From: Escherichia coli
GTDB lineage: Bacteria; Pseudomonadota; Gammaproteobacteria; Enterobacterales; Enterobacteriaceae
Assembly (NCBI RefSeq): GCF_030013595.1
Contig: NZ_CP122768.1
DNA length: 64,000 bases
Reading direction: 5' to 3' (one strand)
The notes below the pieces were generated by a model that did no database searches, had not been told where the DNA came from, and saw only the letters and a program-made list of their open reading frames with translations. This document shows, piece by piece, positions 12,454 through 51,493 of the stretch. Numbering within the stretch: the stretch's first letter is position 1; each line of letters begins with the position of its first letter. A program made the translations under genes and the position numbers.

Positions 12454-12567
<114 letters not shown>

Positions 12568-16309: not shown

Positions 16310-16585
16310 GTGGCTTCTGTTTCTATCAGCTGTCCCTCCTGTTCAGCTACTGACGGGGTGGTGCGTAACGGCAAAAGCACCGCCGGACATCAGCGCTATC
16401 TCTGCTCTCACTGCCGTAAAACATGGCAACTACAGTTCACTTACGCCGCCTCTCAGCCCGGTACGCACCAGAAAATCATTGATATGGCCATGAATGGCGT
16501 CGGATGTCGCGCCAGTGCACGCATTATTGGCGTTGGCCTCAACACGATTTTCCGCCACTTAAAAAACTCAGGCCGCAGTCGGTAA
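16310..16585 (+). CDS. insA: IS1 InsA
   Basis: 91 aa [43 protein letters not shown]..., zinc finger plus HTH. Confidence 0.9.
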
Positions 16586-17007
16586 CCTCGCGCATACAAC
16601 CGGGCAGTGATGTGATTGTCTGCGCTGAAATGGACGAACAGTGGGGCTACGTCGGTGCTAAATCACGTCAGCGCTGGCTGTTTTACGCGTATGACAGGAT
16701 GCGGAGGACGGTTGTGGCGCACGTCTTCGGTGAACGCACTCTGGCCACACTGGAGCGTCTTCTGAGCCTGCTGTCGGCCTTTGAGGTCGTGGTATGGATG
16801 ACGGATGGCTGGCCGCTGTATGAATCACGCCTGAAGGGAAAGCTGCACGTTATCAGCAAGCGTTATACTCAGCGCATTGAGCGGCATAACCTGAATCTGA
16901 GACAACATCTGGCAAGGCTGGGACGGAAGTCACTGTCGTTCTCAAAATCGGTGGAGCTGCATGACAAGGTCATCGGGCATTATCTGAACATAAAACACTA
17001 TCAGTAA
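16504..17007 (+). CDS. insB: IS1 InsB reading frame (expressed as InsAB' by -1 frameshift)
   Basis: 167 aa frame overlapping insA 3' end; DDE transposase core. Confidence 0.85.
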
Positions 17008-17022
17008 GTTGGAGTCATTACC

Positions 17023-18210
17023 GATTCCTTAGAAGTGTATTCCGGTAGCAATAAAATCAATCCTTATTGGTATCAAAGGGAGGCAGTCTTTCAGGGTATC
17101 CACAATCGCCGTAGAATGCTGGTTCTTCCTACCAGTGCCGGAAAGTCATTGATTGCTTGTATGCTGTCTCGTTGGTACTTAGAGAACTACACCGGAAAAG
17201 TGTTAATCATTGTTCCGACTACATCGCTAGTGGTTCAAATGAGGGATGATTTCATCGATTATAGGCTATTCCCTTATGAAGCAATTCATACAATGATGAG
17301 TGGTAGCGGGAAACATCCGGGAGACAGGTTAATCACGGTTAGTACCTGGCAATCAGCTTGCAAGATGCCTCCTGAATGGTTCCGACAATATGGAATGTTG
17401 ATAGTTGATGAATCGCATAAGGCTAGTGCCAAAAATATTACCAATATCATCAATGGAATGAATCATTGCCAATTTAAGATCGGCATGACTGGTTCCCCGA
17501 AAGAATCAAAGTGCCATTTAATGCAGTATGTCGGGCTTTTCGGTGATATTTCTAAGATCGTGAGTATTGACCGCCTGATGGAAGAAGGGCAGGTGACAAA
17601 ACTGAAAATTAACTGTCTTTTCCTTCGTTATACAGATGAGGAATGTAGCGCGGTTAAGGGGCGAGAATATGCGGAAGAGATCAAGTATATTACGTCTAAC
17701 CCACGACGAAATAAGTTTGCTTGTAATTTGGCGCTAAAACTAGCTAAGAAGGGCGAAAACGTATTCCTGATGTTCCGCAATACTAAGCACGGAAAACTTA
17801 TGTATGATGCGTTACAGAAGGTACACGACAAGGTTTATTATATTGACGGTGGAGTTAAGACAGAAGAACGTGATGAATTTAAGAAAATGGCGGAGGGTGA
17901 CACCGGGATCATTTGCGTTGCATCCTATGGTGTGTTCTCTACTGGTGTTTCAATTAAGAATTTGCATCATGTTATTTTCGGTCATCCAGTGAAGGAATCA
18001 ACTATCGTTCGTCAGAGTATCGGTCGTGCATTGCGTAAACATGGTTCTAAGGATATTGCAACGGTCTGGGATCTTATAGATCATCTGTGTATATTCGGTC
18101 GTAACGGAAAAGTCAAGCATAAAAATTATGCGGTAAAACATGCACTTGAGAGAATCCGCTATTATCTAACCGACAAGTTCAGCTATGCAACTAAAACAAT
18201 TGCTATATAA
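17023..18210 (+). pseudogene. UvsW-like SF2 helicase, C-terminal fragment
   Basis: Walker A LVLPTSAGKSL, DExH box IVDESHKA, helicase C-terminal motifs VASYGVFSTGVSIKNLHHVIFG and GRALRKHGSKDIATVWDL; in frame with the N-fragment across the IS1 target duplication. Confidence 0.7.
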
Positions 18211-18241: not shown

Positions 18242-18595
18242 TTATCCATTCCATCGTGATTTTTTCGATCTGGAATCGATATGCGTAAAGGTTTTATATT
18301 TGCCTAAGCCGTATTGAGTAGGATATTTCCCATCAAGATAAGCATGGACAATATCAGGGGAGACACCCTTGATCACAATGTCAGCCGCACGGCCTCGAAC
18401 GTGATAGCTGTTGGTTGCACCGCCTACATTCTTGTTATGAGTCGGGCAACGGTTGCCACTGTTAATAATCACTGGTTTACCGAAGTGCTCTCGTACATCC
18501 TCAAGAATTACCAGTAATTCAGCGTCGATTGTATCATAATCACATTTTCCGCATTTACATTTAAATTCCTTGCGAGAAAAATGCTTACTTAACAT
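18242..18595 (-). CDS. endolysin, peptidase M15 family (L-alanyl-D-glutamate peptidase type)
   Basis: 117 aa; zinc-binding signature SYHVRGRAADI ... FTHID typical of VanY/M15 phage endolysins. Confidence 0.75.
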   Translation of the reverse strand: MLSKHFSRKEFKCKCGKCDYDTIDAELLVILEDVREHFGKPVIINSGNRCPTHNKNVGGATNSYHVRGRAADIVIKGVSPDIVHAYLDGKYPTQYGLGKYKTFTHIDSRSKKSRWNG

Positions 18596-30058: not shown

Positions 30059-33000
30059 TTATTTAGTTGCTTTGAGTTCGGCAATTTCTTTCTGTAATGC
30101 TTCGATCTGGGCTTTATATTTGGCGTCCATTTCCTGAATAGCTTTAATAATCAAGGCATTAACAGCGGAGTTAGAAATAGTCTTAATTGCTTCTGGATTT
30201 TCTGGATCTTCGGTGGATTGAATACCTACTGCTTCCGGCAACACTTCTTCCAGATCCTGAGCAATAATACCTACTTCGCGTTTAATCACTGTGTCATCAG
30301 AAAGAGATTTAACTTTATCGTAGGTGTAGACTTTCAGGGAGTTTACTTTCTCTAATGCGCCGTCCTGTAATTCTTCCTTGTTGATTTTAAGGCGAGCATC
30401 AGAACGAATGTACACATCGTTAAAGCTACCGTTTCTGGATGCGCTTAAATCACCAGCCGCGTTAAAGTCAAACGTTGCATCGTGTACGTGCATACGCACC
30501 ATAGCATTTCCGATAGTACCGCTAGGAACATGTACACCCATTGCTGCGATATGATATTTACCTTGATGGGTTGCTTTCCATACGTTATGAGCGGAATCGG
30601 TTGATTGTTGACAGTCGACCTGAATACCAGAAGCACGATCACGCCAGCTAGTCCAACTACCACCAGCAACGCTACCACGAATAAGACCATTACCGCCACC
30701 GGATACAGTGCCCGTTTCAAGGTGAATCATCTTACCGCCGAATTTCCAGACTTCGGTTTGTTTCTCACCACGGAAGCGAATAACACCAGCGTCATCGCAA
30801 TACATCAAGCCCAACTCTAAACCGTTTGGATCTCTAAACCAGATGTGCTTATTGCCAGCGCGTTTAAACGTAATATCAGCACCAGTTGTTGTGATATTGC
30901 TAGCAACGTTTAGACTACCCGCCATAGAGAACAGAATAGGTCCAGTGCCACCCTGAGTACGTTCAGTATACCAGTGATAACTTGTAGCATCCTTACATTC
31001 AAAAACCTGTTTGCGTTGCTCGTTACCCCATGTATGGAGACTAAATTGCGAAGAAGAACCACGGTTAGCATCAAATGCAATTTCACCAGATTCTACACGT
31101 ACAAAGCCTCTAAAACGTGTTGTTATGTTACCAGTACCCATAGCACGTTCAGTGATAAAATGTGCGCCCTGACTGTCTTCAATCTGTAGGATGTTATCGC
31201 GACCGTTATTGCTATCGCCCCAATGGTTAAACCGGAAGTAATCGCGGGAATTTAATCGCCCAGCGTCGAAAGTCAAATGCCCTTTCTTAATGTAAACGTC
31301 ATTACTAAAGCGAGCGGCTTTGCTTGCACGTTCTAAGACTAATGCACCTTCGTTACCATCACCACCCAAAGTAACATTACCGCTACCAAGATGGTAAATG
31401 AACGGACGATAGCCGTTCCAACTACCAAGTTTATCATTTTCGGCAGTAGACAGAAGATATACGTTTTGACCATCATTACGCCAGAATGCACCATAATTAC
31501 CGTAGATCATGCGGTAAGCGTCGCTATTCATTGAGATGAATTGAGCGTTAGTATAAACTCGTTTTGTGTTACCGGTTGCAAGTTCGATCTGTCCGTCTAT
31601 GTGGTGACGAATAGAAGTACCACCTACATCACTATACCATTCAAAAACGTTAGTATCAGCATTACCATAACCGATCCACCCTTGACGGGTAATAGATCCA
31701 GTCCGATTATCTTGAAACGTAATATGGTTGGATTGACCAGCAGGACGCCGCAAGGTAATAACATTACTACCGCCACCCAACATCATTCGACCAGAAAGAA
31801 TATTACCTTTATGAGTCCCAGCAATAGAGCTACTAGATTCAACGGTTAGAATCTCCTGAGCATCTGTACTACCCGTGGCGAGTCGATAAGTAGAACCCTG
31901 AACCGTCTCATGCCAGATCATTTCATTATAGTTACTGCGGAATTTACGAATATATTTCCGACCAGTACCCCTATCATTACTCAAGTGAACAATATCATAA
32001 CTATTTTGTGTGTTATCGTCAAAACTCAACACACCTCGTTTGTTTTCGGTGTTGAAAAGAGTAATGATGCGCCCATCAATAACACCAACAGAAGGTTTAA
32101 TTAACGTGGCTTCCGGTGTATCGTGAACAGTCAGATTAACATAAACACTTTTACCAAATTCAACAATAACGTTATCAGTGTAACGCTGATATTTCACATA
32201 AATGTCATAGTTATCACCGGATGTATTGACGGCAAATACATCAAAATCTTTGACGGTATTTCGACGATATGCAACTACGTTAAGTCCTTTAGGTCTATCG
32301 TTACCACTACGGAGAAGAATTTCTACTACATCAACTTGGTCATATGCCGTAACGTTGTAACCATTACCACCATGAATACGGAAAAACACACTACGCCCGT
32401 TTTGTGGAATTGTTGCGGTTGCCAATTTGAAATATGCAGATACGTTTTCGCTAGAATTGGGAACAGACATAACGACGTTTTTAACAAACATCTTATCAAC
32501 TTCGGCTTTGGTGTATGCACCAATCTCGCCAGGAGTCGGCTTATCACCTTCGTGATACATCTTATAGCTAAAGTTCTTCTGTCCTTCTCTATCAAAACCA
32601 TAGGTTTCAACACGAGATCCACCAGACGCATAACGGAAAGTAAATCCGCGACCGTGAGCTTTACCGGCAGAGTGAGGAACGTTAAGAGTTAGATCCATGA
32701 GTCCATCTTGACCATTGGTACGGAAAGCACCAAAGTAGTTAAGATCTCTCGCTGTCTGGTCTTCCAAATAGTTAGCTGTTTTGGTTAACAGATACCCGCC
32801 ATGCTTAGTGTTGGTATTCTTCTTGATGTAAAGAGCATCGTTACTACCTTCAATACCATCAATTCGACGGTTAGCGGCTGCGATCGCTGAATCAGTATCA
32901 GTTTTGTTTTTGTCAACCTTTGCGTTAATAGCGGTATGGTTGCTATTCACCGTCCCTGTAAGGTTACTGATTTTAGTATCAACATCTTTCTTGTTGTCGG

Positions 33001-33520
33001 AAACGACCTTTTCAATCGCTGTTTTGTTAGCTGCAACCGTGCTAGTTAAGCTAGAAATTTTGTTATCTGCATCGGTTTTATTTGCAGTAACAGTTTTAGT
33101 CAAGTTGCTAACGTTGGTGTTAGTGGTATTAACTTTGTTGTTAATCGCGGTGTTATTGTCATTAACCGTCGTGGTTAAAGCTGCGATTTTATTGTCCGCA
33201 TCTCGTTTATTATTTGCTACAGTAGTTTCTATAGCTGATTTGTTAGATGCAACTGTCCCCGTAAGGTTATTGATCTTAGTATCAGCATCGGTTTTATTTG
33301 CCGCGATAGTCGCATCAGTAGTTTTCTTGTTATTGTCTACTTTTGTGTTTAAAGCATTATGACTTTCAGGAGAAACACTTACTTGAACTACTGCGTTATT
33401 TTTATCTTTGGTATAAATTACATGGTCTGCCATCTGAATAGCGATTTCACCGACCTGTAATTGTTCCGGCGTTGGCTTTTTACCAGCCGTCTGTGTGCGT
33501 TTAAATTGGATCGACTGCAT
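30059..33520 (-). CDS. side tail fiber with tandem repeats and C-terminal intramolecular chaperone (S74-like) domain
   Basis: 1153 aa; conserved fiber N-terminus (KPTPEQLQVGEIAI...YTKD), about five 28-29 aa repeats (ANKTDADTKINNLTGTV...), C-terminal DVYIRSDARLK ... GIIAQDLEEVLPEAV chaperone signature. Confidence 0.75.
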   Translation of the reverse strand: MQSIQFKRTQTAGKKPTPEQLQVGEIAIQMADHVIYTKDKNNAVVQVSVSPESHNALNTKVDNNKKTTDATIAANKTDADTKINNLTGTVASNKSAIETTVANNKRDADNKIAALTTTVNDNNTAINNKVNTTNTNVSNLTKTVTANKTDADNKISSLTSTVAANKTAIEKVVSDNKKDVDTKISNLTGTVNSNHTAINAKVDKNKTDTDSAIAAANRRIDGIEGSNDALYIKKNTNTKHGGYLLTKTANYLEDQTARDLNYFGAFRTNGQDGLMDLTLNVPHSAGKAHGRGFTFRYASGGSRVETYGFDREGQKNFSYKMYHEGDKPTPGEIGAYTKAEVDKMFVKNVVMSVPNSSENVSAYFKLATATIPQNGRSVFFRIHGGNGYNVTAYDQVDVVEILLRSGNDRPKGLNVVAYRRNTVKDFDVFAVNTSGDNYDIYVKYQRYTDNVIVEFGKSVYVNLTVHDTPEATLIKPSVGVIDGRIITLFNTENKRGVLSFDDNTQNSYDIVHLSNDRGTGRKYIRKFRSNYNEMIWHETVQGSTYRLATGSTDAQEILTVESSSSIAGTHKGNILSGRMMLGGGSNVITLRRPAGQSNHITFQDNRTGSITRQGWIGYGNADTNVFEWYSDVGGTSIRHHIDGQIELATGNTKRVYTNAQFISMNSDAYRMIYGNYGAFWRNDGQNVYLLSTAENDKLGSWNGYRPFIYHLGSGNVTLGGDGNEGALVLERASKAARFSNDVYIKKGHLTFDAGRLNSRDYFRFNHWGDSNNGRDNILQIEDSQGAHFITERAMGTGNITTRFRGFVRVESGEIAFDANRGSSSQFSLHTWGNEQRKQVFECKDATSYHWYTERTQGGTGPILFSMAGSLNVASNITTTGADITFKRAGNKHIWFRDPNGLELGLMYCDDAGVIRFRGEKQTEVWKFGGKMIHLETGTVSGGGNGLIRGSVAGGSWTSWRDRASGIQVDCQQSTDSAHNVWKATHQGKYHIAAMGVHVPSGTIGNAMVRMHVHDATFDFNAAGDLSASRNGSFNDVYIRSDARLKINKEELQDGALEKVNSLKVYTYDKVKSLSDDTVIKREVGIIAQDLEEVLPEAVGIQSTEDPENPEAIKTISNSAVNALIIKAIQEMDAKYKAQIEALQKEIAELKATK

Positions 33521-34440: not shown

Positions 34441-34911
34441 TTAAAAACGCGCTAGATAAGAAAATTTAAGGCTAAGTGTCCCAACGATACCCCCATCACT
34501 AGAATCATCGTCATAATCGGTATTAGAAGCTACTGGAGTGATATCTGAAATTGAGAAGCCCAAATCTTTAAAACGTGGGTTATCCGGCTGAATCTGGATT
34601 ATCTGGCAAATACCCTCATGAATTTTGGTTTCATGAATCTGAGAATACAATTGCATTTCGATAACGCATTCAGCTTGCATTGCATTACCGCCACGGACCC
34701 TATTGTAAGTCTCATTCATTCCGGTGATCCAACAAACCACGTCATCACTAAAGCCTTGCTGAGTTTGTTCTACGTTTAAAGCCAGACCTAAATCTTGTTC
34801 GATAATATCCTGCAAGGCGCGTTTGATTTTCAGTCTAGGCATATTATTAACGGTAGCGAGCATGTGTACCCCCTGCCAGAGTGATAAAGCAATCAGTTGT
34901 ATTGTCACCAT
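34441..34911 (-). CDS. head-tail joining protein candidate
   Basis: 156 aa ORF in head-to-tail junction region; true start may be the internal Met. Confidence 0.35.
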   Translation of the reverse strand: MVTIQLIALSLWQGVHMLATVNNMPRLKIKRALQDIIEQDLGLALNVEQTQQGFSDDVVCWITGMNETYNRVRGGNAMQAECVIEMQLYSQIHETKIHEGICQIIQIQPDNPRFKDLGFSISDITPVASNTDYDDDSSDGGIVGTLSLKFSYLARF

Positions 34912-35286: not shown

Positions 35287-37293
35287 TCACTCTTCGCCAA
35301 TTTTCAGAACTTTCAGAGCTTCCGGCTGTGCTACAACGTAGTCCAAATCTACAAAGATACGAGGCACTACCGCACCACGGTCACGGTATGTAGTTAGATC
35401 CATATCCAGTTCCAGACCGCCCCACTCACCGATGGTAATACCGGAGAAGTCACCCAGAACGATGTGGTCTGCCGGAATAACGCCAGAAGTAACTACTTCG
35501 TAACCAGCCAGTTTGCCGTTTTCGATGATATAACCGGAAACGCCGTTATCTTTCAGGGTAGATTCCAGTTCGGCAGCAGTTGCACCGCTCATTGCAAACT
35601 TGATCGCCTGAGCAGGAACGCCAGCGTCGGTCAGTGCTGCAATTTCTTTCAGGAAGTCTTTATAAGAGAAAGCAGCTTTCTTGGTAACGCGGCTAGCGTC
35701 TACCAGTTGCTTAACCAGACCAGCCGGACCACGAGCATTTTCTTTATCAGACAGAATCAGTTGTTCCAGTTTGATACGAACAGCTTTGTTAATGTGATCA
35801 GTGATCAGGGTAGCGATGCCCGGAACGGTTTTCAGCGACTGACGGCTGATCGGGTTGCCACCAGCAAAAGTTTTCGGAGACAGTTTCACGTTCGCAAATT
35901 CAGCTTTGCTTTCCGGTGCAGCACCGTTTTCATCAACGAAGCCGAAAGCGTCAACGCTGGAAGCGGTCATTTTTGGAATAGCGGTCGGGGAGTTCAAGCC
36001 ACTGTAAACAGTCACACCCAGACGACCCAGACACGAAGCAGGAAGCAGCATTTCGATGTAGGATTCAGTCATCAGTTTTTCGTCAGTGATAGCGGTCAGG
36101 TCGGCTTTGGTGTTACCAGCAGAAGCAGCACGCAGAGCAGCAGCCGGAACGAATACAGAGCCACCACGAGCAGCACGACCACGCTGCATAGTTGCAGTAG
36201 CAGCCATTGCGGAATATTCAGCTTCGTTAGCGCCGAGCACGTCGCCATCTACCAGGGAGCGGATTACGTTATTAAGATCGAAAGTTTTTTCCATGATTTG
36301 TTCCTTATTAATTTGTTCGTTATTACGTTGAGCATTGGTAATGTTATTTAGTGCCTTAGTGCGGAATGCTTCCGGCGTCATGTCTTTAATTGCCAATGCG
36401 CGTGCTAATTCAGAGTCATCAATATTTAGTTCGCGTGCAATTTCGCGAATTTCTAATTCGTCTTCTTCGGAACGTTCAGCCACTTCCTCGGTTTTTTCTT
36501 CTTCAACCGGAGCGGCTTCACGTTCTTCTTTTACTTCTTCTGTTTCCCGAACAGTTGAACTATCATCATCAACACTTTCAGGATGTTCAGCGTCTTTTCC
36601 GTCTTCGAGATTTTCATCTTCTTTATTCTCTTCAACTTGGCGCTCTTGAGTTTCTTCAACTTCCGGTTCTTTATTTTCTTCTACCGGAGTTTCTTCAACC
36701 TGAGCGGCTTCTTGTTCTTCTTTGATTTCTTCGATTTGTTCTTTAGTCATATCGCGTTTAGCCCCCAAATTAACTGTGATAGTATTTAGAGAGCGATTTA
36801 AACCGACCGTATCGTCTGCGGGCACCGACACCCATGAAATCTCGTGAGGAATCCATTTAGAAACAATGAGTTGCGATTTAGCGTAGTCGATGTGATATTC
36901 TTTAATGTCATAACCGACAGAAATTTTTTCCATCGTACCTTCAATGACTTTATTGCGAATATCATTAGCCAAAGTGCCATGCTTAGAGAATCTAACGGTC
37001 GCACGGCCTACGTTATCCGCATCGATTCGAGCGTTACAAACGACACCAATGTGATTATCGAAATTGTGATTGAACAGCAACGGAGCGTTATTATTCAGAC
37101 GAGACAGATCAACCGCTTCCGGTGTATGTACCAGAATTTCATCTAATACCACCATTTCTTGATTTTGCTCATCCCAAAATTGGCGCTGATAAGGCTGTGT
37201 ACTTGAGAAAGCAATTTCAAATTCGTATTGATCGTTATGCCCTTCATTAATAACTCCACCGTAACCGTTAAGATCGCGGCGAAATTTAAGCAT
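35287..37293 (-). CDS. prohead protease - scaffold - major capsid protein fusion
   Basis: 668 aa; N-terminal protease-like domain, central Glu-rich acidic linker (scaffold/delta-like), C-terminal HK97-like capsid region; directly downstream of portal. Confidence 0.65.
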   Translation of the reverse strand: MLKFRRDLNGYGGVINEGHNDQYEFEIAFSSTQPYQRQFWDEQNQEMVVLDEILVHTPEAVDLSRLNNNAPLLFNHNFDNHIGVVCNARIDADNVGRATVRFSKHGTLANDIRNKVIEGTMEKISVGYDIKEYHIDYAKSQLIVSKWIPHEISWVSVPADDTVGLNRSLNTITVNLGAKRDMTKEQIEEIKEEQEAAQVEETPVEENKEPEVEETQERQVEENKEDENLEDGKDAEHPESVDDDSSTVRETEEVKEEREAAPVEEEKTEEVAERSEEDELEIREIARELNIDDSELARALAIKDMTPEAFRTKALNNITNAQRNNEQINKEQIMEKTFDLNNVIRSLVDGDVLGANEAEYSAMAATATMQRGRAARGGSVFVPAAALRAASAGNTKADLTAITDEKLMTESYIEMLLPASCLGRLGVTVYSGLNSPTAIPKMTASSVDAFGFVDENGAAPESKAEFANVKLSPKTFAGGNPISRQSLKTVPGIATLITDHINKAVRIKLEQLILSDKENARGPAGLVKQLVDASRVTKKAAFSYKDFLKEIAALTDAGVPAQAIKFAMSGATAAELESTLKDNGVSGYIIENGKLAGYEVVTSGVIPADHIVLGDFSGITIGEWGGLELDMDLTTYRDRGAVVPRIFVDLDYVVAQPEALKVLKIGEE

Positions 37294-37338: not shown

Positions 37339-38850
37339 TTAGGGATCGGCTGGGGAATTTTTTTCTTCACCCTCGCCATCAACGATAATATTTAGTGCGC
37401 TCTTTTCGGCTTGAATCTCTGAGAATACTTTTTCAGGATCATCACCACGTTCAAGAATAACGGCAGTACGTGATTTAAGTCCTTTATCAATTAAAGCAAT
37501 CTCGGCGCTTACGTCTTTAAATGGATCGACGGATTCAAAACGAGGACGAATAATAGTAGTGTTGTCGATAATATGCGGAATTGCAGTAATACGAATCGGA
37601 ACAATACCACGCGCGGAATAATGGCGTAGATATGCTTCGAAAATTGGCAATACCACTGTTTCAATCAATTTGTTTTGCAGTGCTTTAACTCGTGTGCGCT
37701 GGGTTAATTCACCGAAACGTGCGGCTGAGTAGTTGATCTGGCTAGTATCACCAGTCAAGCCCTGTTTAAACACGCCTAAGCCCATTGATACGCTAGTAAA
37801 CATCGCATCATTGAAGCTGTTAAAGTCATCACCGCTTTGCGTCGCCTGGATGCTCTTGATCGTTGCCCCTTCCGGCAATTCCTGAATAGTACCCGGTGCA
37901 AAATCCTGTACTACTTCCGGCGCTTGATATTGTTCATCCTCTTCACCAGTATCAAAATCGTCACCAGAATCTTTCGGACGTTCGATAAAGCCCATAGAAC
38001 TAGCCGCAATACGTTTCTGGACGATCGCAGTTTCGCGGAATGCGTCTTGATGTGCGATATCCTTAATCACTGGCAGGAAATCAGTCACACCACGCAGGGA
38101 TTCAGACGCAAGTGGTTGATAATAATGGAATACTTGCGAAGCATCGACGCGATAGTTATCACCTGTGTAAGTCTGAGTCAGTAGGTTGATTTTACGAAAC
38201 CAATATGCAACAGGGCGCATTGTTTCTACGTCATACTCGATCCCCTGATAGATAGCACGTTCTTTGCTTATTTCACGGTTTAGCGACCAGTCGCACTTAT
38301 CAGCAGACAGGATGGAAACATTTAACTCATTGTTTTCTTTGGTTAAAACGATGAAGCACTCACCACCCATAACGCGCTCACGTTCAGCCATTACCAGCAG
38401 TTCACGGAAGTTAAAGCGACCGTTACGAGAGAAGCGTTTAGCGTTCTGCGCCCACTTCCAGAAAGCATTCTCGATCTGCTTATTCAGTGCGCTATCAAGT
38501 TTGCCATTTGATTTAACGATTGACGGCTTCGGATCTAGGCCAGTACCTACCACCATATCGGTGATGTATTGCGTGTAGCGACTGCCAACGGAAGTGTTTA
38601 AGGCCAGAGTACGACCCTGATCATAAAGGCGCTCACCGTTCGATTTGAGAGCCTTATTGAAGGTTCCTGTAATGGTGTCTTGTTGAAGTGATCCATCAAT
38701 ACGATCACCAACCAGTCCTAAACTACGAGTCGCCAGAGATTTCTGGTATCTTTCTATAGATTTGTCGATGAAAATTTTTGGTTGTTGCTGGCGGTGATTA
38801 GTTTTAACTGGAGTTTCTACCGCCTTTTTGCGTCGAAAAAGATTAAACAT
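37339..38850 (-). CDS. portal protein
   Basis: 503 aa, size and position between terminase and capsid. Confidence 0.65.
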   Translation of the reverse strand: MFNLFRRKKAVETPVKTNHRQQQPKIFIDKSIERYQKSLATRSLGLVGDRIDGSLQQDTITGTFNKALKSNGERLYDQGRTLALNTSVGSRYTQYITDMVVGTGLDPKPSIVKSNGKLDSALNKQIENAFWKWAQNAKRFSRNGRFNFRELLVMAERERVMGGECFIVLTKENNELNVSILSADKCDWSLNREISKERAIYQGIEYDVETMRPVAYWFRKINLLTQTYTGDNYRVDASQVFHYYQPLASESLRGVTDFLPVIKDIAHQDAFRETAIVQKRIAASSMGFIERPKDSGDDFDTGEEDEQYQAPEVVQDFAPGTIQELPEGATIKSIQATQSGDDFNSFNDAMFTSVSMGLGVFKQGLTGDTSQINYSAARFGELTQRTRVKALQNKLIETVVLPIFEAYLRHYSARGIVPIRITAIPHIIDNTTIIRPRFESVDPFKDVSAEIALIDKGLKSRTAVILERGDDPEKVFSEIQAEKSALNIIVDGEGEEKNSPADP

Positions 38851-39427: not shown

Positions 39428-41332
39428 TTAGAACGATGTTACCCAGCTACGGCCTCTATTTGGGCGTCTGACGATGTTTTGACGTTGTGGTCGTGTGATT
39501 GGCTTAGTTTCTTCGATTTGCTCGTCAGATTGCGATTTAGGAGCTTCTACAGGTTCTTCTGGTTCACGGTTCAAACTATCTTTGATGGCTTCGAGTTTTT
39601 CCCATGACATTTTATTGAGTACATGACGAGAAGCAGCATAGGAATAAGCCAGGCAGTCCAACGCTTCGTTTCGTGTTTGTCCAACTTTTACCCAACGTGT
39701 GGTATTACCCTGCCGTTTCAACTGTTCAGAAAGCAATTGCTCGCAATAGTCATCAGGAACGTCACCAATCTGGAAGACAGTGTGAGGATCGCCATCTCTC
39801 AAGTTCCGGTTAATCATTTCACGGATCATCGTTTTAAGGTTGTTTACGCCCAGAATTTTAAGGGTAAAACCACCCGTTCTTGTGTCTTTTACCGGAAGGA
39901 TTGGTGCATCAACATTGCTTGCGCCTTTAATGGCGGTTAGATTTTGCCACCGACTACAGAATCGATAGATCACGTTTGTAGCTCGTCCGTTCGATGAGTC
40001 CACGAAAGCAGATAACATCGGGATTCGTTCACCGGATCGGGTATAGAATTTAGCTTTCAGGAAGTTGTAAAGCTGGTTATATGCTGGTGATTCGTGGCGT
40101 TCGCAGTTCACATCATAGAATGATCGGTGATCAACTACGCATAGCCCTTTACGAGAAATACCCAGCAAGGTAGATTCCAGACGGTCTTTTTGCTGGTCAA
40201 CTCCACCTACCAGAGCCAGTACATCATCAGGAATATTGTCTAGGCTAATATCAGTTTTCAGCGTTTCTAATTCGTCGGCTGTGCGGTCTTCGTTAAGATC
40301 ATCGAAGGTTTCACCGAGGACTGTATTGTAGAACGTTGCCAGGGACATATTCGCGTAGCTATCAGCAAAGTCCACCACACACGCACGGATAGAACTAAAC
40401 GGAGACATAAGGCGGTTAGCATGAAAACCGATTACTTCCGCGTTTGGTTCGGTGGCGACCCATTCTCCCTGTCCAACAGCACGTAGGCGATCACCCTCGG
40501 TCCAATCGGTTTCACATTCAGGGCAACGGTAAACGGCTGTATCTGGGTTGGGTAATGATTTACCGTTAATCGTATGCCAATCGAAATGTACGTTACTCCA
40601 TTCCATTACGTGCTTGTGTCCGCAATGCTGGCAAACGACATGATATTTTCTCTTATCCGAGAGTTCCCATTGTTGGTTAATCGCCCCATCACGAGCGGTT
40701 GGAGTGGAAGCAATTACGATCCTTGCATCTTCCCCGAAAGTGGTTGCGCGTTGTTCCGCTAGTTGGATCGGGTTCCCTTCGTCTGACTCATCAGCCGCAT
40801 CAACTTCATCAAGAATAATCAAAGGGAGTGTTTTACCGCGAAGATGTGACGGACTATTCAACGACATGAAATACATAAACGATCCGTTACGAAGCTGAAT
40901 AATCGATGAGTTGTTAACGGCATTGCGATCTGATTTGTCGGTGATCATCGCCTTTAATTCTGGTGTTGCCTCTAATACTGGCTTCACCTTACCAGCGATC
41001 CAAGAATTTAGTTCTCTAACGTTACTTTGCAACACCCCAATATTAGTAGGGTTACTCGCGATCCGATGGAAGATAATTCCGTTAAGAATCATGGTCTTAC
41101 CCAACTGTGCCGAACATTTAAACACAATTTTTCTACGGTCTTCGGTGATCGCGTCCATCATTCCACGTTGGAAGGGATGCAATTTAATTAGCGATCCGGC
41201 TTTAACACCATCGGTTGCAACTACATTAGCCTCTACCCATTCGCTAGGTTTCATCGTTTTAGGTGGGCGAATTGCCGCAGAGATATTTTTAAGAATCTTT
41301 TTTAATTTTGCCTTGTTCGAAATCAGTTTCAT
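39428..41332 (-). CDS. terminase large subunit (GpA-like)
   Basis: 634 aa; Walker A-like FKCSAQLGKTMILNG, acidic DE-rich nuclease region at C-terminus. Confidence 0.8.
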   Translation of the reverse strand: MKLISNKAKLKKILKNISAAIRPPKTMKPSEWVEANVVATDGVKAGSLIKLHPFQRGMMDAITEDRRKIVFKCSAQLGKTMILNGIIFHRIASNPTNIGVLQSNVRELNSWIAGKVKPVLEATPELKAMITDKSDRNAVNNSSIIQLRNGSFMYFMSLNSPSHLRGKTLPLIILDEVDAADESDEGNPIQLAEQRATTFGEDARIVIASTPTARDGAINQQWELSDKRKYHVVCQHCGHKHVMEWSNVHFDWHTINGKSLPNPDTAVYRCPECETDWTEGDRLRAVGQGEWVATEPNAEVIGFHANRLMSPFSSIRACVVDFADSYANMSLATFYNTVLGETFDDLNEDRTADELETLKTDISLDNIPDDVLALVGGVDQQKDRLESTLLGISRKGLCVVDHRSFYDVNCERHESPAYNQLYNFLKAKFYTRSGERIPMLSAFVDSSNGRATNVIYRFCSRWQNLTAIKGASNVDAPILPVKDTRTGGFTLKILGVNNLKTMIREMINRNLRDGDPHTVFQIGDVPDDYCEQLLSEQLKRQGNTTRWVKVGQTRNEALDCLAYSYAASRHVLNKMSWEKLEAIKDSLNREPEEPVEAPKSQSDEQIEETKPITRPQRQNIVRRPNRGRSWVTSF

Positions 41333-42523: not shown

Positions 42524-43363
42524 TTAGATACCAAAGACAGCAAGTGATCCGGCGTTCTTACGAATCAATGCGGCGGTATTATTAACGATTGCACGAGCAT
42601 TGTTAGGCTGCGGTAATTTCAAAGTTGCTATCGTCTCTTCCTCAATCAAGCCCAATTCAACCAGCACTGGTAAACAGTCAGTTGTGAACTCAAGCTGACC
42701 ATGTGCTGATTGTCGGGCATACATGTAAGCAGGAGGAAGAACATCATAGCCACAAGGCTTACCAGAAGCATCCAGACGGCGCTCAATGTGTTTAGCCTCA
42801 CACAATCCCTTAAGAATACGTTGTACCTTCGTAGAGCCTCGTTTTTCGCCCAATAAGCGGGTTAAGCTGTGCCCGTCAATGGCACGGCGAACATGAAGAT
42901 CAATTAATTGTTCTTTTTCTTCCGCTAAAGTCAGAGCCTTACGAATCCAATCAACTTCGGTCATCTTGCTTGCGTCTGGGAAAGCGTTATTCTTTAATTC
43001 TTCATTTTCTTTCTTCAAACGCTGCCATTCATCAACCAGCATTGCGGTATAAACCGGATCGGTCTGTGCGATAACAATGTAGCTATCACGTTCAGTCAGA
43101 AGATAAACTTCAATTGGTTTGCCTTTACGGCCTAAACGGTCAGTTTTTGACCAAAACGCCACTGGCGGTTTGGTTACAATTTGAGCTTCAACCAGACGAT
43201 CAACCGTTCTCATAATATCGGTGTGACGGTTTTCACGCCCCATTAGTTCAGCAATACGCCAGGTAGAAATTGATAATTCTTTCTCTACAGAGTCATTTGC
43301 AGCAGTCAGGTCAACAGAAGAAGCAGTTTTAACAGCAGTATTCATAGTAGTAACAGTATTCAT
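42524..43363 (-). CDS. Rha-family phage regulatory protein (antirepressor-like)
   Basis: 279 aa; N-terminal segment STWRIAELMGRENRHTDIMRTVDRL fits the Rha domain pattern (recalled signature, unverified). Confidence 0.45.
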   Translation of the reverse strand: MNTVTTMNTAVKTASSVDLTAANDSVEKELSISTWRIAELMGRENRHTDIMRTVDRLVEAQIVTKPPVAFWSKTDRLGRKGKPIEVYLLTERDSYIVIAQTDPVYTAMLVDEWQRLKKENEELKNNAFPDASKMTEVDWIRKALTLAEEKEQLIDLHVRRAIDGHSLTRLLGEKRGSTKVQRILKGLCEAKHIERRLDASGKPCGYDVLPPAYMYARQSAHGQLEFTTDCLPVLVELGLIEEETIATLKLPQPNNARAIVNNTAALIRKNAGSLAVFGI

Positions 43364-44094: not shown

Positions 44095-44743
44095 TCTAAT
44101 ATTATTTATAAAGAGAAAATTCTTGTTATTATGAAAGGAGTGATCTGGTAGAGTCCAAAACTGGTCTGTACTTGAAAGGTGATTGGATTCAGTCGGGCAA
44201 AGCCCTCCTTCATGTTTTGATTAAATCATCATCAAAACGAAGAAGTATCTTTAGAATATAAGATCTTTCTTTTGGAGAAATAATAATCAGGAAGCAATTT
44301 GGCAACCGAAGGTTGCAATCCCGAAGGGATAACCAATACCTTTCTAGAAAGTGATTGTTACTCACTTCGTTCGTTTACTAGAATCAGTTATCATCTGGTA
44401 TTAAATCCCTTTCTAAGAAAATCCTTTCAAAAGTGATTCTCGATGCCACGCAGTGGCGTCGCAGACGTTTGGGAGTGAGCGAAGCGAGCGAGCAAACTAG
44501 TTAATTCCTTCTAAGACCATCTAGTATCATCTAGTTTAAATTAGTTGTTACTAGAAGCAATTGGTTGGCGCTTCGCGCAGTCGGGCTAAAGCCCTCCTAA
44601 TTATCTTTTTGGTTATTTGTTGTTTTTAGTTTTACACATGAGCGTAGCGAATGTGTTATATAATATCTATGCACGCCCAATCCCCCGCTTTTTCCCCTCA
44701 CTAAGTTAATGTTTTATAAAGAGTTTTTCTCACCAATCCTTTT

Positions 44744-44931
44744 CGGGGGCAAATTTCAGGGGCAAAAATTAGATTTTCAGGGGCAAAAATAGTGGGTTTC
44801 AGGGGCAAAAATGAGGGGCAAAATCACTGTTTCCCAGAATTTCAGGGGCAAAAATAGTGGGTTTCAGGGGCAAAAATGGGATGTGGAATCTAGGGGATTT
44901 TGGTTCAGGGGCAAAATTCAGGGGCAATTTT
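44744..44931. repeat. iteron-like direct-repeat array, about 9 copies of TTCAGGGGCAAAAAT at mostly 21-22 bp spacing
   Basis: copies at 44757, 44777, 44799, 44842, 44864, 44905, 44918 plus degenerate copies at 44745 and 44813; two 22-bp units AGTGGGTTTCAGGGGCAAAAAT are identical. Confidence 0.65.
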
Positions 44932-44968
44932 CATAGTGTAGGGCTAGTGTAGGTTTGAAAATCCTTTG

Positions 44969-44997
44969 TTGACACTGTGTAGGATCGGTGGTATACT
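44969..44997 (+). promoter_or_regulatory. consensus sigma70 promoter (TTGACA-17 bp-TATACT)
   Basis: perfect -35 hexamer, 17-bp spacer, near-consensus -10; points toward the plus-strand right-arm genes. Confidence 0.5.
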
Positions 44998-45445
44998 TGA
45001 AAATTCGAGATAAATATGTTATAATATTTGTATTGAAAGTGAAAATTTACCGATTTTCCTTCCTATTGTTATCACCGTGTTAAATTGTTATATGTCTGTG
45101 AAGATTTGGATCTGAGAGAAAATCTTGTAACAAATCTTTACAATTCATAGCTCAATTAATGCTCACCGCTTTAGCAAAAAGTGCTATGCCTTTTTCTAAA
45201 TTGATTGAATATACATCAATTTGGTTAAATCGTGTTCTTCGCTTTAGCAATTCGTGCTGTGGTTTAACACATTTAACACGTCTGATAACATCTGAATAAC
45301 ATTTTAACATATCTCTGTTATAAATACATATATAAGAGATAAATGTGAGGGGTTGAAAAATAAAATACAATCCCATATAAATAATAGTGAGCGGTTAACG
45401 CTCTTTTTTAAGAAATCATTAATCCACATTGTAGGAGGATTCGAG

Positions 45446-47345: not shown

Positions 47346-47903
47346 TTAAGACACATCAAATTCATCGTCTTCTTCTGGTTCTTGTTCTTCCGGTTCATCC
47401 ATTAATGGTAATTCTTCTTCCTCGTCTTCTCCCAAATCTGCATTTTCGAACAAGTCCCCTACTTCATTTAAACGACGCTCGATGATCTCCCTTAGCTTAT
47501 TCTTTAATGTTTTCTGGTCATTGGCAGATTCGAGAATTTCTAGGGCATCGATCGTACAAATCTGCAAAATAGTCTGCTTCACTTTCCCGCAATATTCCGC
47601 TAGTTGCTGTTCTACATAACCGACAGGAATCAGGAGGTTCATTTTTTCCTGATTCTCTCGTTCGGCTGCATCTGCCATTGCTCTTTCTCTGCGGAGACGT
47701 TCTTGATCAATCGCTTCTTTGATTGAAGTTTGTTTAAGTGGGTTAATTACGTTCTTTAGCACCCAATCGCAACCTTCCTTTGCCGGAACACGCCTCTTAT
47801 TGGTATTGTAAGGTAGTCCCCTTTCTAACCATCGCTTACCGCCACCATTCAATGTATAGCCATATAAACGGGAAATTTCTGTAAGGGTTAATTCTTCTTT
47901 CAT
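47346..47903 (-). CDS. wHTH DNA-binding protein, Nu1-like (terminase small subunit candidate or regulator)
   Basis: 185 aa; N-terminal LTEISRLYGYTLNGGGKRWLERGLPY resembles the recalled lambda Nu1 LADIFGASIRTIQNWQEQGMP...GGGKG region; acidic C-terminal tail. Confidence 0.4.
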   Translation of the reverse strand: MKEELTLTEISRLYGYTLNGGGKRWLERGLPYNTNKRRVPAKEGCDWVLKNVINPLKQTSIKEAIDQERLRRERAMADAAERENQEKMNLLIPVGYVEQQLAEYCGKVKQTILQICTIDALEILESANDQKTLKNKLREIIERRLNEVGDLFENADLGEDEEEELPLMDEPEEQEPEEDDEFDVS

Positions 47904-48394
47904 TGGTTATCCTCCATTAAATTTGCGTAATTTTATTTATTGGTTTTACGCAAAATCTAAGCGCCTAAATCGCATTCTAACGAAGGGAAAGATCCAGTAA
48001 TGGTAAGGGCTAGGAAGTGGGTTAATAGTCGCGTAGCGACCGCGCTAGGACTGCACTGATCACGTTTTAAAATCTCACACGCACATCAAAAACCGGGGTG
48101 CCGAAAACTCGCTTTATCTGACCCCGATCCAGAACCTAAATCATTTGTCAAGTCTTTCCGATTCAGTAAAGGGGAACATGCATCTAAGCTAGAGAAGCTC
48201 ATAAAGACTAAGTATGAATGCGGTGTTGTTAGTCGGGATGATATGCGAGACGGTTACACTGAAACGCTACCATTTGAAGCATTGCCGGAGATCATCACTA
48301 TCACCAACAAAATGATAAGCGAAAGCATCCTCGTAAGTAATTGATTCCTAAGCCCTGTCCTTGTGATGGGGCTTTTTTATTGGAAAAATTTTAG

Positions 48395-48745
48395 TTATTG
48401 GGGTTTACAACATTTAGGTTTGCCAATTCGTCTGGCTAACTCTTGCTGAGTGATTTCTGACTGTAAAAAAGCATTTAACAGCAATACCTTAGAGGCGACA
48501 CTCAAAGGCACTTCAATAAAGTGATCGTGACTATTTAATGGCGAAGGTAACGGGATAAGCTCGTTATCTTCAAAATAAAAATCAAATGCGGTCAGTAAAG
48601 CATCTTTTGCCGCTTCCATCGCTTCAGCAACTGTTTCGCCCTGGGTCAACGCTTCAGGGATATCCACAAAAGAAACCATATAACCGCCTTCCGGCGCGGG
48701 TGTAAGAGTGACGGGATAACGCATAATTTCGACTGTCTCTCGCAT
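48395..48745 (-). pseudogene. hicB: hicB 5' part (truncated antitoxin, toxin-binding domain retained, DNA-binding domain replaced by 5 phage-derived codons)
   Basis: matches recalled HicB up to ...ARRIGKPK then diverges to CCKPQ* at the attR core. Confidence 0.8.
48413..48421. repeat. attR core (TTTAGGTTT)
   Basis: identical to 12559..12567. Confidence 0.5.
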
Positions 48746-48768
48746 GTCATTAACCTTTTTAATTGGCG

Positions 48769-48945
48769 ATTAACTCAAACCGAGTTGCTTCAGGATTGCT
48801 TTACGCAATGGTTCTTTAATCTCATCGCAGGGGTGACGCGGCATGACACTGCGCCTCCCGTGAAACCTGAGTTTTAAATGGTTGCTGCCATTCGCTACAT
48901 CGACGCCCTGAGATTCGAGCCAACGTCTGAACTCGCTTTGTTTCA
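48769..48945 (-). CDS. hicA: HicA mRNA interferase toxin
   Basis: 58 aa from GTG start: VKQSEFRRWLESQGVDVANGSNHLKLRFHGRRSVMPRHPCDEIKEPLRKAILKQLGLS; below the ORF-track size cut-off. Confidence 0.8.
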
Positions 48946-49167
48946 CATCGCCTCCCTGCCGCTGAGTATATCAACAAAGTAAACATTAGTGTTTACCTCC
49001 GTGTGTAATTTGCTCGAAAATAGCACTAAATCGCCGCAACGGCAGAATGCAATGCAAAATCAGGAAGGAAGATTCCAGAATTTCTTTGCGCTAATTTGCA
49101 AAACTGAATAATAACCTCAAGAAACTATCGGCATCATAGCGGCAAAAGGTGAGAAAAAGGTGGCGGG

Positions 49168-49398
49168 ATGTTTACGAAGGCGTTATCGGTTGTCTTATTA
49201 ACGTGTGCGCTGTTCTCAGGACAACTCATGGCAGGGCACAAAGGACATGAATTTATGTGGGTAAAGAATGTGGATCATCAGCTACGTCATGAAGCGGACA
49301 GCGATGAATTGCGTGCCGTGGCGGAAGAGTCGGCGGAAGGTTTGCGCGAGCATTTTTACTGGCAAAAATCGCGCAAACCAGAAGCGGGACAACGTTGA
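49168..49398 (+). CDS. yncJ: small secreted protein YncJ
   Basis: 76 aa with signal peptide; matches recalled YncJ. Confidence 0.8.
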   Translation: MFTKALSVVLLTCALFSGQLMAGHKGHEFMWVKNVDHQLRHEADSDELRAVAEESAEGLREHFYWQKSRKPEAGQR

Positions 49399-49489: not shown

Positions 49490-51493
49490 TTACCCTTTTC
49501 GCTTCGGCAATGTTTTCAGCAGCTCATCCGGACTTACGGAGGCGACAACACTTCCCGGTAACGGCATTTTCAGAATGTGATTTTTAATTTTGCCGATGAC
49601 GTGCATCTCGCATGGGCGGCAATCAAACTTTAGCGTTAATACTTCATCGCCGTTAACCAGTTGCATTGGCGTCGCCTTCCAGCTTTTGATATTGCCTTTC
49701 GCCTGTTTCGGGCACAGATTGAAGGCAAAGCGCAGACAATGCTTAGTGATCATCACCGGGACTTCGCCCTTCTCTTCATGTGCCTCATACGCCGCGTCAA
49801 TCAGCTGCACACCGTAGCGATGATAAAATTCACGCGCTTTCTGGTTGTATACGTTCGCGAGGAAACTCAGATGCGTTTGCGGATAAACCGGCGCAGGATC
49901 AGCAACCGGTTTACGGCTGCCCCGCTGGTAACCGGCAAGACGTGCAGCATCCAGCATGTCGGCGGCTTCACGGCGGAACTGGTTTAACAGACTGTTTGGT
50001 ACAAACAGCGCACCCGGCAAATTAATTTGCACATCGCGGGCGTAATAGATGGTTTGCCCCAGTTTTGCCAGACCATCCTTTAGATTGTTCATTGCTTTTT
50101 CGGCGTTATTGGCTTCGTCGAACTGCCCGTCCAGCGTATGCATGATGCTGACACCCTCTTCACTGGTGAGGGTCAGAATCAGTTGTTCCTGCCAGCCGCC
50201 CAGTTCAATGTCTACCGCCACCCGACGTTCGCTGGATGTTTTGGTCAGTGCCTGCTGCCAGTTATGATCAAGATTACGGTTTAGTGGGTGATGCGGGCGA
50301 ATTTTGTGCAACTCTGCTGGCATTTCATTGGGCCAGACGCGGTACTGATTTTCTCCGGTTTTCTCGACCGTATTGGCACGAAAGCCGACGACTTCACGTT
50401 TAATCATCACGTTCAGGCCATCGCCATTTGCCAGTGGTTCGGAAACGGCAACATCGAGATGATCTTTCGCCACTTTCAATACTTCACCCACCGGCAGGCC
50501 GATAAATTTCGGCGAATCGAACGCGCCAATATCGCCTTTACGGGCATTCACAAAATAATCTGTGCTACCACGGTGGAAAGTCTTTTCCGTCGATGGAACA
50601 AAGAAATGTTCAGTACGACCTGATGAAGCACGCGTCAGATCGACACGTTCTTCAATAATGGCATCCAGCATCTGGCGATAATGGGCGGTGATATTCTTCA
50701 CGTAGCTCATATCTTTGTAACGCCCTTCAATCTTGAAGGAGCGTACGCCAGCATCAATCAGCGCGCCGAGGTTGGCAGTCTGATCGTTATCTTTCATCGA
50801 CAGCAGATGTTTTTCATAGGAAACCACCCGCCCCTGATCGTCTTTCAATGTGTATGGCAAACGGCACGCCTGCGAGCAATCGCCACGGTTGGCGCTACGC
50901 CCTGTTTGCGCATGAGAAATGTAGCACTGACCCGAATAGGCCACGCACAGTGCGCCATGAATAAAGAATTCAATGGTCGCGTCCGTGGCCTGGTGAATCG
51001 CGCGGATCTGCTCAAGATTCAGTTCTCGCGCCAGCACAATCTGCGTGAAGCCAACATCAGAGAGGAACTTCGCTTTTTCTACTGTACGAATGTCGCACTG
51101 CGTACTGGCGTGCAGTTCAATCGGCGGAATATCAAGTTCCAGAATCCCCATATCCTGAACAATCAGCGCATCGACGCCGGTCTGGTAGAGGTCAGTAATC
51201 AGCCGTTGCGCGGGTTCCAGCTCATCATCATGCAAAATTGTGTTAAGCGTGACGAAAATTTTTGCACCATAACGATGGGCAAACGGCACCAGCTCGGCAA
51301 TATCTTTCAGGCTATTACTGGCATTATGACGGGCACCAAAACCAGGGCCGCCGATATAAACAGCATCGGCACCGTGCAAAATAGCTTCGCGGGCAATGGC
51401 GGCATCGCGTGCCGGACTTAACAGTTCAAGACGATGAGAAGATACAGTCACTTTCTTATCCAGTAGCTGAAAAATGGCGGCTATTTTAGCCAC
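49490..51493 (-). CDS. rlhA: U32-family peptidase-like protein YdcP / RlhA (23S rRNA hydroxycytidine synthesis)
   Basis: 667 aa ORF; U32 family features with Cys-rich C-terminal region; conserved neighbourhood; start codon uncertain. Confidence 0.75.
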   Translation of the reverse strand: MAKIAAIFQLLDKKVTVSSHRLELLSPARDAAIAREAILHGADAVYIGGPGFGARHNASNSLKDIAELVPFAHRYGAKIFVTLNTILHDDELEPAQRLITDLYQTGVDALIVQDMGILELDIPPIELHASTQCDIRTVEKAKFLSDVGFTQIVLARELNLEQIRAIHQATDATIEFFIHGALCVAYSGQCYISHAQTGRSANRGDCSQACRLPYTLKDDQGRVVSYEKHLLSMKDNDQTANLGALIDAGVRSFKIEGRYKDMSYVKNITAHYRQMLDAIIEERVDLTRASSGRTEHFFVPSTEKTFHRGSTDYFVNARKGDIGAFDSPKFIGLPVGEVLKVAKDHLDVAVSEPLANGDGLNVMIKREVVGFRANTVEKTGENQYRVWPNEMPAELHKIRPHHPLNRNLDHNWQQALTKTSSERRVAVDIELGGWQEQLILTLTSEEGVSIMHTLDGQFDEANNAEKAMNNLKDGLAKLGQTIYYARDVQINLPGALFVPNSLLNQFRREAADMLDAARLAGYQRGSRKPVADPAPVYPQTHLSFLANVYNQKAREFYHRYGVQLIDAAYEAHEEKGEVPVMITKHCLRFAFNLCPKQAKGNIKSWKATPMQLVNGDEVLTLKFDCRPCEMHVIGKIKNHILKMPLPGSVVASVSPDELLKTLPKRKG

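Follow-up and report, generated by a model that had tools for sequence, protein, structure and literature searches.

A tailed prophage with a serine integrase splits the antitoxin gene hicB of Escherichia coli beside an intact hicA toxin gene

In Bacillus subtilis, the elements SPbeta and skin interrupt the chromosomal genes spsM and sigK and carry the large serine recombinases (LSRs) SprA and SpoIVCA, and excision rebuilds the interrupted gene; LSR elements in comK, spsM, and sigK show switch behaviour. The integrase of SPbeta has been the subject of structural work (PMC11722253). In Listeria, A118 and phi10403S use a serine integrase with a bacterial attachment site (attB) inside the coding region of comK, where an asymmetric, non-palindromic 2-bp crossover lies in a short core within poorly related att sites and excision restores the gene (PMC3556126). 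Here we describe a comparable insertion in hicB (ydcQ), the antitoxin gene of the hicAB toxin-antitoxin module, in a 64,000-nucleotide stretch of the Escherichia coli contig NZ_CP122768.1 (this whole stretch is called the window), in which a prophage breaks hicB at codon 102 of 138 (K102) and leaves the toxin gene hicA untouched. In contrast to A118 and phi10403S, the host is Gram-negative, the target is an antitoxin gene beside an intact toxin gene, the att sites are deduced from sequence, and no integrase of the deposited phage collection exceeds 31% identity to the one described here. The excision of SPbeta and skin is developmentally programmed, whereas nothing of the kind is indicated for the hicB prophage.

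The N-terminal domain of HicB neutralises HicA, and HicB represses the promoter P2 at the operator hicO, P2 giving antitoxin alone, while P1 depends on Sxy and CRP; a beta-strand after the helix-turn-helix (HTH) domain dimerises E. coli HicB, and the N-terminal domain of Yersinia pestis HicB3 complexes its toxin unaided (PMC11594946). Contact with HicA is made by helix alpha-1 in the RNase H-like fold of HicB, and natural HicBs of 60-90 amino acids (aa) that have no DNA-binding domain and are essentially a partial RNase H fold are common in Class 1 and Class 2 hicAB modules (bioRxiv 10.1101/2023.12.08.570793). K-12 survives complete deletion of hicB (Delta-ydcQ), which removes the repressor and keeps hicA; such mutants have weaker envelope-stress responses and suppress the lethality of Delta-rpoE, an effect later attributed to activation of the toxin (PMC2215328, PMC11481867).

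On the minus strand, the window has the gene order rlhA/ydcP, hicA, a shortened hicB (hicB', with the product HicB'), about 36 kb of foreign DNA, the tail of hicB, and ydcR (Table 1), and ydcR is annotated at the corresponding position in related genomes. Deleting the prophage in silico (12568-48421, 35,854 bp) gives a single hicB open reading frame (ORF) of 145 or 138 aa, depending on the start, whose product is 100% identical to PDB 6HPB/6HPC over 138/138 residues. The empty site built in this way (300 nt) occurs as an unbroken stretch in 5281 of 5426 complete E. coli genomes, a set to which the window's own genome does not belong, with a best match of 99.7% over 300/300 nt, and the alignment of the uninterrupted genomes starts exactly at 48413. 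An artefact, either a misassembly or a hicB that naturally ends here in this lineage, has a negligible probability: the joined halves encode a protein identical to 6HPB, the same junctions recur in 34 independently finished genomes, the Prokaryotic Genome Annotation Pipeline (PGAP) calls both halves partial hicB, and the guanine-plus-cytosine (GC) content steps at both prophage borders. The splitting of hicB by a phage insertion is thus confirmed and is not a chance pattern. The initial annotation of the window had claimed such a split with hicA intact, a 3' piece stranded about 36 kb away, and five foreign codons at the end of hicB', and each of these is borne out by the two hicB halves, the 58-codon hicA, the minus-strand remnant next to ydcR, and the codons for CCKPQ that precede the new stop. 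Its coordinates for hicA (48769..48945) were one base off, and its reading of that gene as intact stands.

The HicA of the window matches the K-12 toxin (PDB 6HPB chain A) with 100% identity, His23 among the shared residues, and this by sequence identifies it as a small mRNA interferase with a double-stranded-RNA-binding-domain fold and a catalytic histidine. The order of the operon is kept, with hicA (48946-48770) followed on the same strand by hicB' from 48745 or 48724. HicB' consists of HicB residues 1-104 (numbered on the 138-residue protein), which are identical to 6HPB_B, then CCKPQ and a stop; it is 109 aa long from the K-12 start (48724) and 116 aa if the upstream ATG is used. Translation of the stranded 3' piece shows no in-frame start codon worth considering, and PGAP labels the matching piece in lysogens as 'hicB, incomplete, missing N-terminus'; each hicB half in related lysogens is treated by RefSeq/PGAP as a partial pseudogene. 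Upstream of hicA, a sigma-70 promoter scan and an inverted-repeat search over 48900-49170 returned nothing usable for P1, P2, or hicO, whose placement in Table 1 follows the literature.

The prophage encodes a single integrase, an LSR, among the genes found. It has the Pfam domains Resolvase (PF00239, residues 11-158, E = 2.7e-14), Recombinase (PF07508, residues 203-291, 3.7e-07), and Zn_ribbon_recom (PF13408, residues 315-373, 9.9e-09), a weakly matching coiled-coil-like stretch at 407-457 (E = 0.17), and an N-terminal motif, YIRFSSMRQ, that fits a resolvase-type catalytic domain with its serine nucleophile; it also matches PHROG 95 'integrase' (1.4e-58). The two prophage ends share a 9-bp direct repeat, TTTAGGTTT, and this identity falls to only 5 bp (GGCAA) in the att variant of O55:H7 strain DEC5A. 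Written in the hicB sense, with a dot after the AA of the inferred crossover, attR reads GGCAA·ACCTAAATGTTGTAAACCCCAATAA (short form GGCAA·ACCTAAATG) in the window and gives the HicB' tail GKPKCCKPQ; the DEC5A type reads GGCAA·CCCGAATGTAGTCAACCCAAAATAA (short form GGCAA·CCCGAATG) and gives GNPNVVNPK; and the PRO_A type reads GGCAA·CCCTAAATG… and gives GNPKCCKPQ. In the same sense attL is …ATATTAGG[G/C]AA·ACCTAAACAGGAG, with two variants among the lysogens; on the plus strand a TT divides host sequence on its left from the variable phage sequence, [G/C]CCTAATAT, on its right.

All three attR and both attL variants change between host and phage at one dinucleotide, the AA of GGC-AAA (TT on the plus strand). 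As these are the only bases compatible with all att variants, strand exchange is deduced to take place at this TT/AA, the first two bases of codon K102. Short att sites that share little beyond such a non-palindromic 2-bp crossover are typical of serine integrases such as that of A118 (PMC3556126), and together with the catalytic, recombinase, and zinc-ribbon domains they place the insert, by sequence, among serine-integrase prophages. The deduced attP is …GGGGTTTACAACATTTAGGT-TT-CCCTAATATAATGCCCCC… and the deduced attB is …TAATCTCCTGTTTAGGT-TT-GCCAATTCGTCTGGC…. With this crossover, the host would specify only HicB residues 1-101 and the phage K102-P103-K104. The phage-given codons 102-104 restore K-P-K here and read N-P-N or N-P-K in other lysogens, and the stop of HicB' falls at one codon position in all three attP variants.

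Table 1. Features of the split hicAB locus, the prophage, and the host flanks (window coordinates).
Feature	Position	Strand	Details
ydcR	10969-12375	minus	GntR/aminotransferase-type regulator; intact 468-aa ORF; host gene downstream of hicB
Stranded 3' hicB remnant	12454-12570	minus	codons 102-138 + stop; translates (KPK)QEITRLFNLHHATKIDAVQLAAKALGKELSLVMV-stop
attL core	12559-12567	.	9-bp identity TTTAGGTTT; inferred crossover TT at 12566-12567
Prophage	12568-48421	.	35,854 bp; ~42% GC versus ~50% in the flanks; GC step at both borders
Integrase (LSR)	13972-15666	plus	564 aa from TTG; RefSeq-style ATG at 13987
IS1	16255-17022	plus	768 bp; terminal repeats located; PHROG transposase match
Endolysin	18242-18595		
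Major capsid protein	35287-37293		668 aa
Portal	37339-38850		
Large terminase	39428-41332		
Rha/Ant-like regulator	42524-43363		
Small terminase	47346-47903		
Intrinsic terminator	48350-48384	plus	phage right end, facing outward to hicB'
Truncated hicB' ORF	48395-48745	minus	K-12 start ATG at 48722-48724; second, upstream ATG
attR core	48413-48421	.	9-bp identity TTTAGGTTT; deduced crossover dinucleotide TT, 48420-48421 (AA of hicB codon K102)
hicA (toxin gene)	48770-48946	minus	58-codon ORF, GTG start, intact
hicAB control region	48947-49167	minus	between hicA and yncJ; literature sites P1 (CRP-S/Sxy), P2 and hicO operator
yncJ	49168-49398	plus	between rlhA/ydcP and hicA
rlhA/ydcP	49490-51493	minus	E. 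coli-type chromosomal flank

In Pfam, the N-terminal HicB domain (PF15919) spans residues 3-67 and the HTH_3 match spans 88-134, so that the HicA-binding domain is uncut in HicB' and codon 102 lies 14 residues into the HTH_3 match and not at a domain boundary. From the usual layout of HTH_3 domains, we take codon 102 to be probably in the turn between the two HTH helices. HicB' keeps 'ITQQELARRIG', and the recognition helix and everything C-terminal to it are removed. The cut, as read from these matches, takes away the recognition helix and the dimerising strand and bisects the HTH domain, which is not cleanly removed. The initial annotation, in which hicB loses its C-terminal DNA-binding part, was right in effect and missed that HTH_3 is split at K102 with its first part kept. 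A complete C-terminal HTH/dimerisation domain is absent from HicB' and appears only after excision in silico; the locus is otherwise a K-12-type hicAB module.

A tailed temperate phage that encodes an LSR is thus integrated in hicB, its attP and the attB inside hicB sharing the 9-bp identity. We propose that HicA would continue to be bound and masked by helix alpha-1 in the partial RNase H fold of HicB'. Neither dimerisation nor binding to hicO would be open to HicB', which would leave the antitoxin-only promoter P2 unrepressed and HicB' over-supplied; with hicA transcribed, as published for E. coli HicAB, solely from the Sxy/CRP-dependent P1, the lysogen would be buffered and viable and would have lost autoregulation. 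Conservative excision by the LSR, together with a directionality factor, would rebuild hicB exactly. We favour this chain as a whole with moderate confidence; within it, neutralisation by HicB' and derepression of P2 are inferred from described HicB proteins. Because helix alpha-1 masks HicA, because HicBs without a DNA-binding domain exist, and because the HicB3 N-terminal domain forms a complex on its own, HicB' should still neutralise HicA. Since HicB' would be monomeric and has no recognition helix, P2 should stay on and buffer the cell. The initial annotation, in which HicB' may still neutralise HicA and autoregulation of the operon is probably altered, is in line with the published work and with the frequency of lysogens, and the proposal adds a direction to the altered regulation. 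Lysogens are tolerated in nature, with the junction present in genomes from varied hosts and serotypes, which agrees with a buffered lysogen. HicB' differs from the Class 1 and Class 2 HicBs in having arisen secondarily by phage insertion, with half an HTH domain and a five-residue foreign tail left over.

Several points weigh against this proposal. HicB' with half an HTH domain could misfold or be degraded rapidly, and, as complete deletion of hicB is viable in K-12, survival of a lysogen with an intact hicA is no proof of neutralisation. The hicA gene was read individually in only seven of the 26 lysogens in which it is annotated. The reconstructed attP has its best imperfect symmetry axis on the same TT as the deduced crossover, and this symmetry is weak, with pairing at 12/25 positions. 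Exact and degenerate attP patterns, which would mark a free or excised form, had no match in IMG/VR or in the JGI metagenomes, and a free or circular form of the phage was dropped as a candidate for that reason; together with the insertion sequence IS1 in a cargo gene, this leaves present-day activity and excision of this prophage copy unproven.

In the main rival account of the lysogen, HicB' is unstable or ineffective, or as a monomer cannot retain HicA, and the lysogen is a tolerated hicB null, with HicA partly free at the low level given by P1. Such a lysogen would have slight mRNA-interferase activity and weaker envelope-stress responses, and sigma-E would no longer be essential. The account draws on the phenotype of Delta-ydcQ mutants, on the incomplete HTH domain and missing dimerisation strand of HicB' (PMC11594946), and on the dispensability of hicA in the species, where it is a pseudogene in 15% of genomes. 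However, the HicA-binding surface lies wholly within residues 1-101, many HicBs have no DNA-binding domain and are apparently functional, the N-terminal domain of Y. pestis HicB3 complexes its toxin by itself (PMC11594946), and lysogens show no excess of hicA pseudogenes (p = 0.22). We consider a null-like lysogen possible and rather unlikely, and continue to prefer the buffered lysogen. Compared with Delta-ydcQ, the lesion is natural, reversible, and widespread, and HicB' retains the HicA-binding domain and is probably over-expressed from P2, so that its phenotype is perhaps milder or absent.

Of the 5426 complete genomes, 34 (~0.6%) carry the attR junction and 30 the attL junction at a coverage of at least 80%, with a best junction identity of 99.5%. 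The lysogens come from humans, pigs, cattle, poultry, and river water and include O55:H7, O6:H16, and several enterotoxigenic E. coli (ETEC) strains. Their integrase DNA is either ~98% or 91-92% identical to that of the window, and this divergence, with the three attP variants, points to repeated integrations at hicB. Exact matches to the three HicB' proteins are also frequent on public contigs (~1,500 in total: GNPNVVNPK, 889; GKPKCCKPQ, 592 + 23; GNPKCCKPQ, 22), some of them labelled Shigella sonnei. In IMG/VR, 28 loci encode the integrase; all are prophage predictions trimmed at gene borders, and three include the 3' flank of hicB.

All seven of the individually read lysogens have hicA as a full-length, non-pseudogene coding sequence, six as WP_000813794.1 and one, CE0007a, as the variant WP_000813797.1, and a 58-aa hicA is called on six of eight further contigs. 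In eight of the 34 lysogens, hicA has a frameshifting 22-bp deletion between TGCG repeats (compare window positions 48790-48830). We rejected a compensatory loss of hicA in lysogens because the same pseudogene allele occurs independently of the prophage in 811 of the 5426 finished genomes (15%) and because its frequency in lysogens (8/34) and in the other genomes (803/5315) gives an odds ratio of 1.7 (Fisher p = 0.22). Judged by this distribution, the deleted hicA is a lineage allele that did not arise in answer to lysogeny.

A phage-free allele, HicB(1-101)+KLIQERL, was found on 11 public contigs with a 58-aa hicA called alongside. Here GGCAA·AC marks the join between hicB and the final seven codons of ydcR, and the rest of ydcR, the 3' end of hicB, and any prophage are deleted. 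The allele shows that truncation at this point is tolerated in a second context. The ydcR site, CAATTAGGCAA·ACTTATT (window 10969-11000), resembles the attL sequence ATATTAGG[G/C]AA·ACCTAAA, and the hicB::ydcR deletion may be an aberrant integrase-mediated excision rather than a random deletion.

Among the 56 genomes that hold the integrase, 33 carry it at 90-95% identity. In the one sister locus that was read, PigCaeca_2 (NZ_CP038857.1 2836057-2859897), the prophage lies inside ycdX, a zinc phosphatase gene unrelated to hicB, and splits its ORF. The integrase DNA of this sister lineage is 93-94% identical, and its phage ends are nearly the same as those of the hicB prophage. The left half-site of the attB in ycdX is similar to that in hicB (TCATATTTGGGATT against TCCTGTTTAGGTTT), and the core identity is GGGNTTCC/TTCC. 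Strain UTME-9 carries a hicB copy of the prophage and a second copy elsewhere.

The choice of hicB, a gene present in ~98.6% of genomes, is best explained by the sequence specificity of the integrase for a conserved, dispensable site and not by toxin-antitoxin function. That function appears irrelevant to site choice because the sister lineage splits ycdX, eight lysogens have a dead hicA, and the phage has no HicA or HicB homologue: a phmmer search over all six-frame ORFs of the window matched only the host hicA and hicB pieces, and on this ground a replacement antitoxin or a second toxin encoded by the phage was rejected. The claim in the initial annotation that the phage targets a toxin-antitoxin locus holds for the location, which recurs in 34 genomes with three attP variants, and has the evidence against it for the function, as the ycdX insertion illustrates.

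The same observations bear on the idea that the site was selected for its function, whereby the phage disarms or rewires HicAB, a proposed anti-phage system, or uses hicB as a reversible 'active lysogeny' switch, or penalises its own loss through HicA. Exact restoration of hicB by excision and conservation of the junction across many lineages would fit it, as would the proposed role of HicA domains in phage defence (bioRxiv 10.1101/2023.12.08.570793) and the precedents of LSR elements in comK, spsM, and sigK (PMC3556126). Against it stand the near-identical phage ends that split the unrelated ycdX, the 8/34 lysogens with an already dead hicA, in which a live toxin is not required, the missing phage homologues of HicA and HicB, and the absence of any attP or excised form in IMG/VR and the JGI metagenomes, and we judge such selection very improbable. 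A related reading is that the lysogen is in a new regulatory state, with a constitutive, monomeric, non-DNA-binding antitoxin made from P2 and the toxin under Sxy/CRP, that this state is exploited by the phage or the lysogen, and that the conserved end of HicB' is selected and not a by-product. We regard this as improbable; if true, it would mean, for example, altered competence or stress behaviour, phage exclusion through HicA, or a reversible excision switch. The hicB prophage shares with regulatory-switch ('active lysogeny') prophages its position in a gene, in that excision in silico restores wild-type HicB. We do not file it among them, and the insertion of an LSR element in a gene is an ordinary kind of event.

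In some annotation pipelines, ydcR is presumably called lysN. The commonest chromosomal context of mcr-1 in E. coli is reported to be a ~25.7-kb 'incomplete phage-like region' with a truncated Tn6330 'between lysN and hicB' (PMC7700713). Judged by its flanking genes, this location appears to be the same integration site. The mcr-1 insert was described as lying between two genes, with no description of a split hicB, a serine integrase, or att sites (PMC7700713), and the window prophage has no cargo of the size of mcr-1, its cargo slot being occupied by a helicase gene broken by IS1. Apart from that report, we found in the literature searched no description of hicB as the attB of a serine integrase or of hicB, ydcR, or ycdX as prophage sites. 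A chromosomal mcr-1 site would thus have been reported earlier without recognition of the integrase or the split gene.

The locus offers a natural, widespread, and reversible separation-of-function allele of HicB, in which the repressor and dimerisation half is gone and the toxin is untouched. Pairs of lysogens and cured strains could be used to examine the sufficiency of the HicB N-terminal domain, the role of autoregulation at P2, and the physiological or anti-phage role of HicA in wild strains. The serine integrase seems to function in a Gram-negative host and, with its deduced attP, attB, and crossover and a relative that targets ycdX, could serve for studying and engineering integrase specificity.

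The insert is recognised as a tailed prophage by its terminase, portal, capsid, and tail-type ORFs (Table 1). One ORF matches a head-tail joining family, and further ORFs are syntenic with the RefSeq tail tube, tail tip, and 1153-aa tail fibre genes of the related lysogen UTME-9. No deposited phage is near: in the deposited phage collection, protein identity reaches at most 31% for the integrase and at most 43% for the capsid protein, and the phage is placed in an uncharacterised E. coli group. The sole nucleotide matches to deposited phages are to gp37 tail fibres of RB49-like T4-type phages. They fall in the tail-fibre ORF at 30059-33520 (minus strand), where ~2.7 kb (30128-32794) has 80-83% nucleotide identity to gp37, the distal long tail fibre of lytic RB49/Phi1-like T4-type phages, which suggests an exchange of receptor-binding modules between a temperate phage and virulent myoviruses.

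IS1 interrupts a helicase cargo gene (15934-16281 + 17035-18210) directly after the integrase gene. The split helicase matches PHROG DNA helicase families and also has weak PADLOC matches to PbeA and to type IV restriction helicases. The slot after the integrase is a variable cargo position, with unrelated genes there in UTME-9.

At the right end of the phage, the last ~80 bp before attR, including the outward-facing terminator, are kept in all lysogens although the adjoining gene varies. The terminator would block phage transcripts that run antisense into hicB' and hicA. For the hicAB transcript past the new stop, the search for a terminator turned up nothing but a hairpin that has no U-tract (-10.4 kcal/mol, z = -0.97 versus shuffled sequence), which we rejected as no better than shuffled sequence; without a U-tract, hicAB transcripts may read into the phage. 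The adjoining stretch at 48213-48332 finds a match in a single finished genome, PRO_A-1412, in which a GIY-YIG nuclease gene has its 3' end there. The window has only short ORFs in this stretch, so right-end cargo too differs between lysogens, and here it may be a remnant.

No Rfam family was found anywhere in the window. ARAGORN calls a 91-nt tRNA-Gln at 34586-34676 (plus strand), inside a minus-strand structural ORF; as Rfam finds no tRNA there, the call is probably a false positive. A ~1.2-kb AT-rich region of the prophage without a convincing ORF (44100-45350) holds, at 44742-44940, about 9-10 copies of TTCAGGGGCAAAA(T) with 11/22-nt phasing, and at the equivalent position UTME-9 shows a gap of 1.5 kb with no annotation. 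The repeats may serve as iterons, as operators, or as a packaging site.

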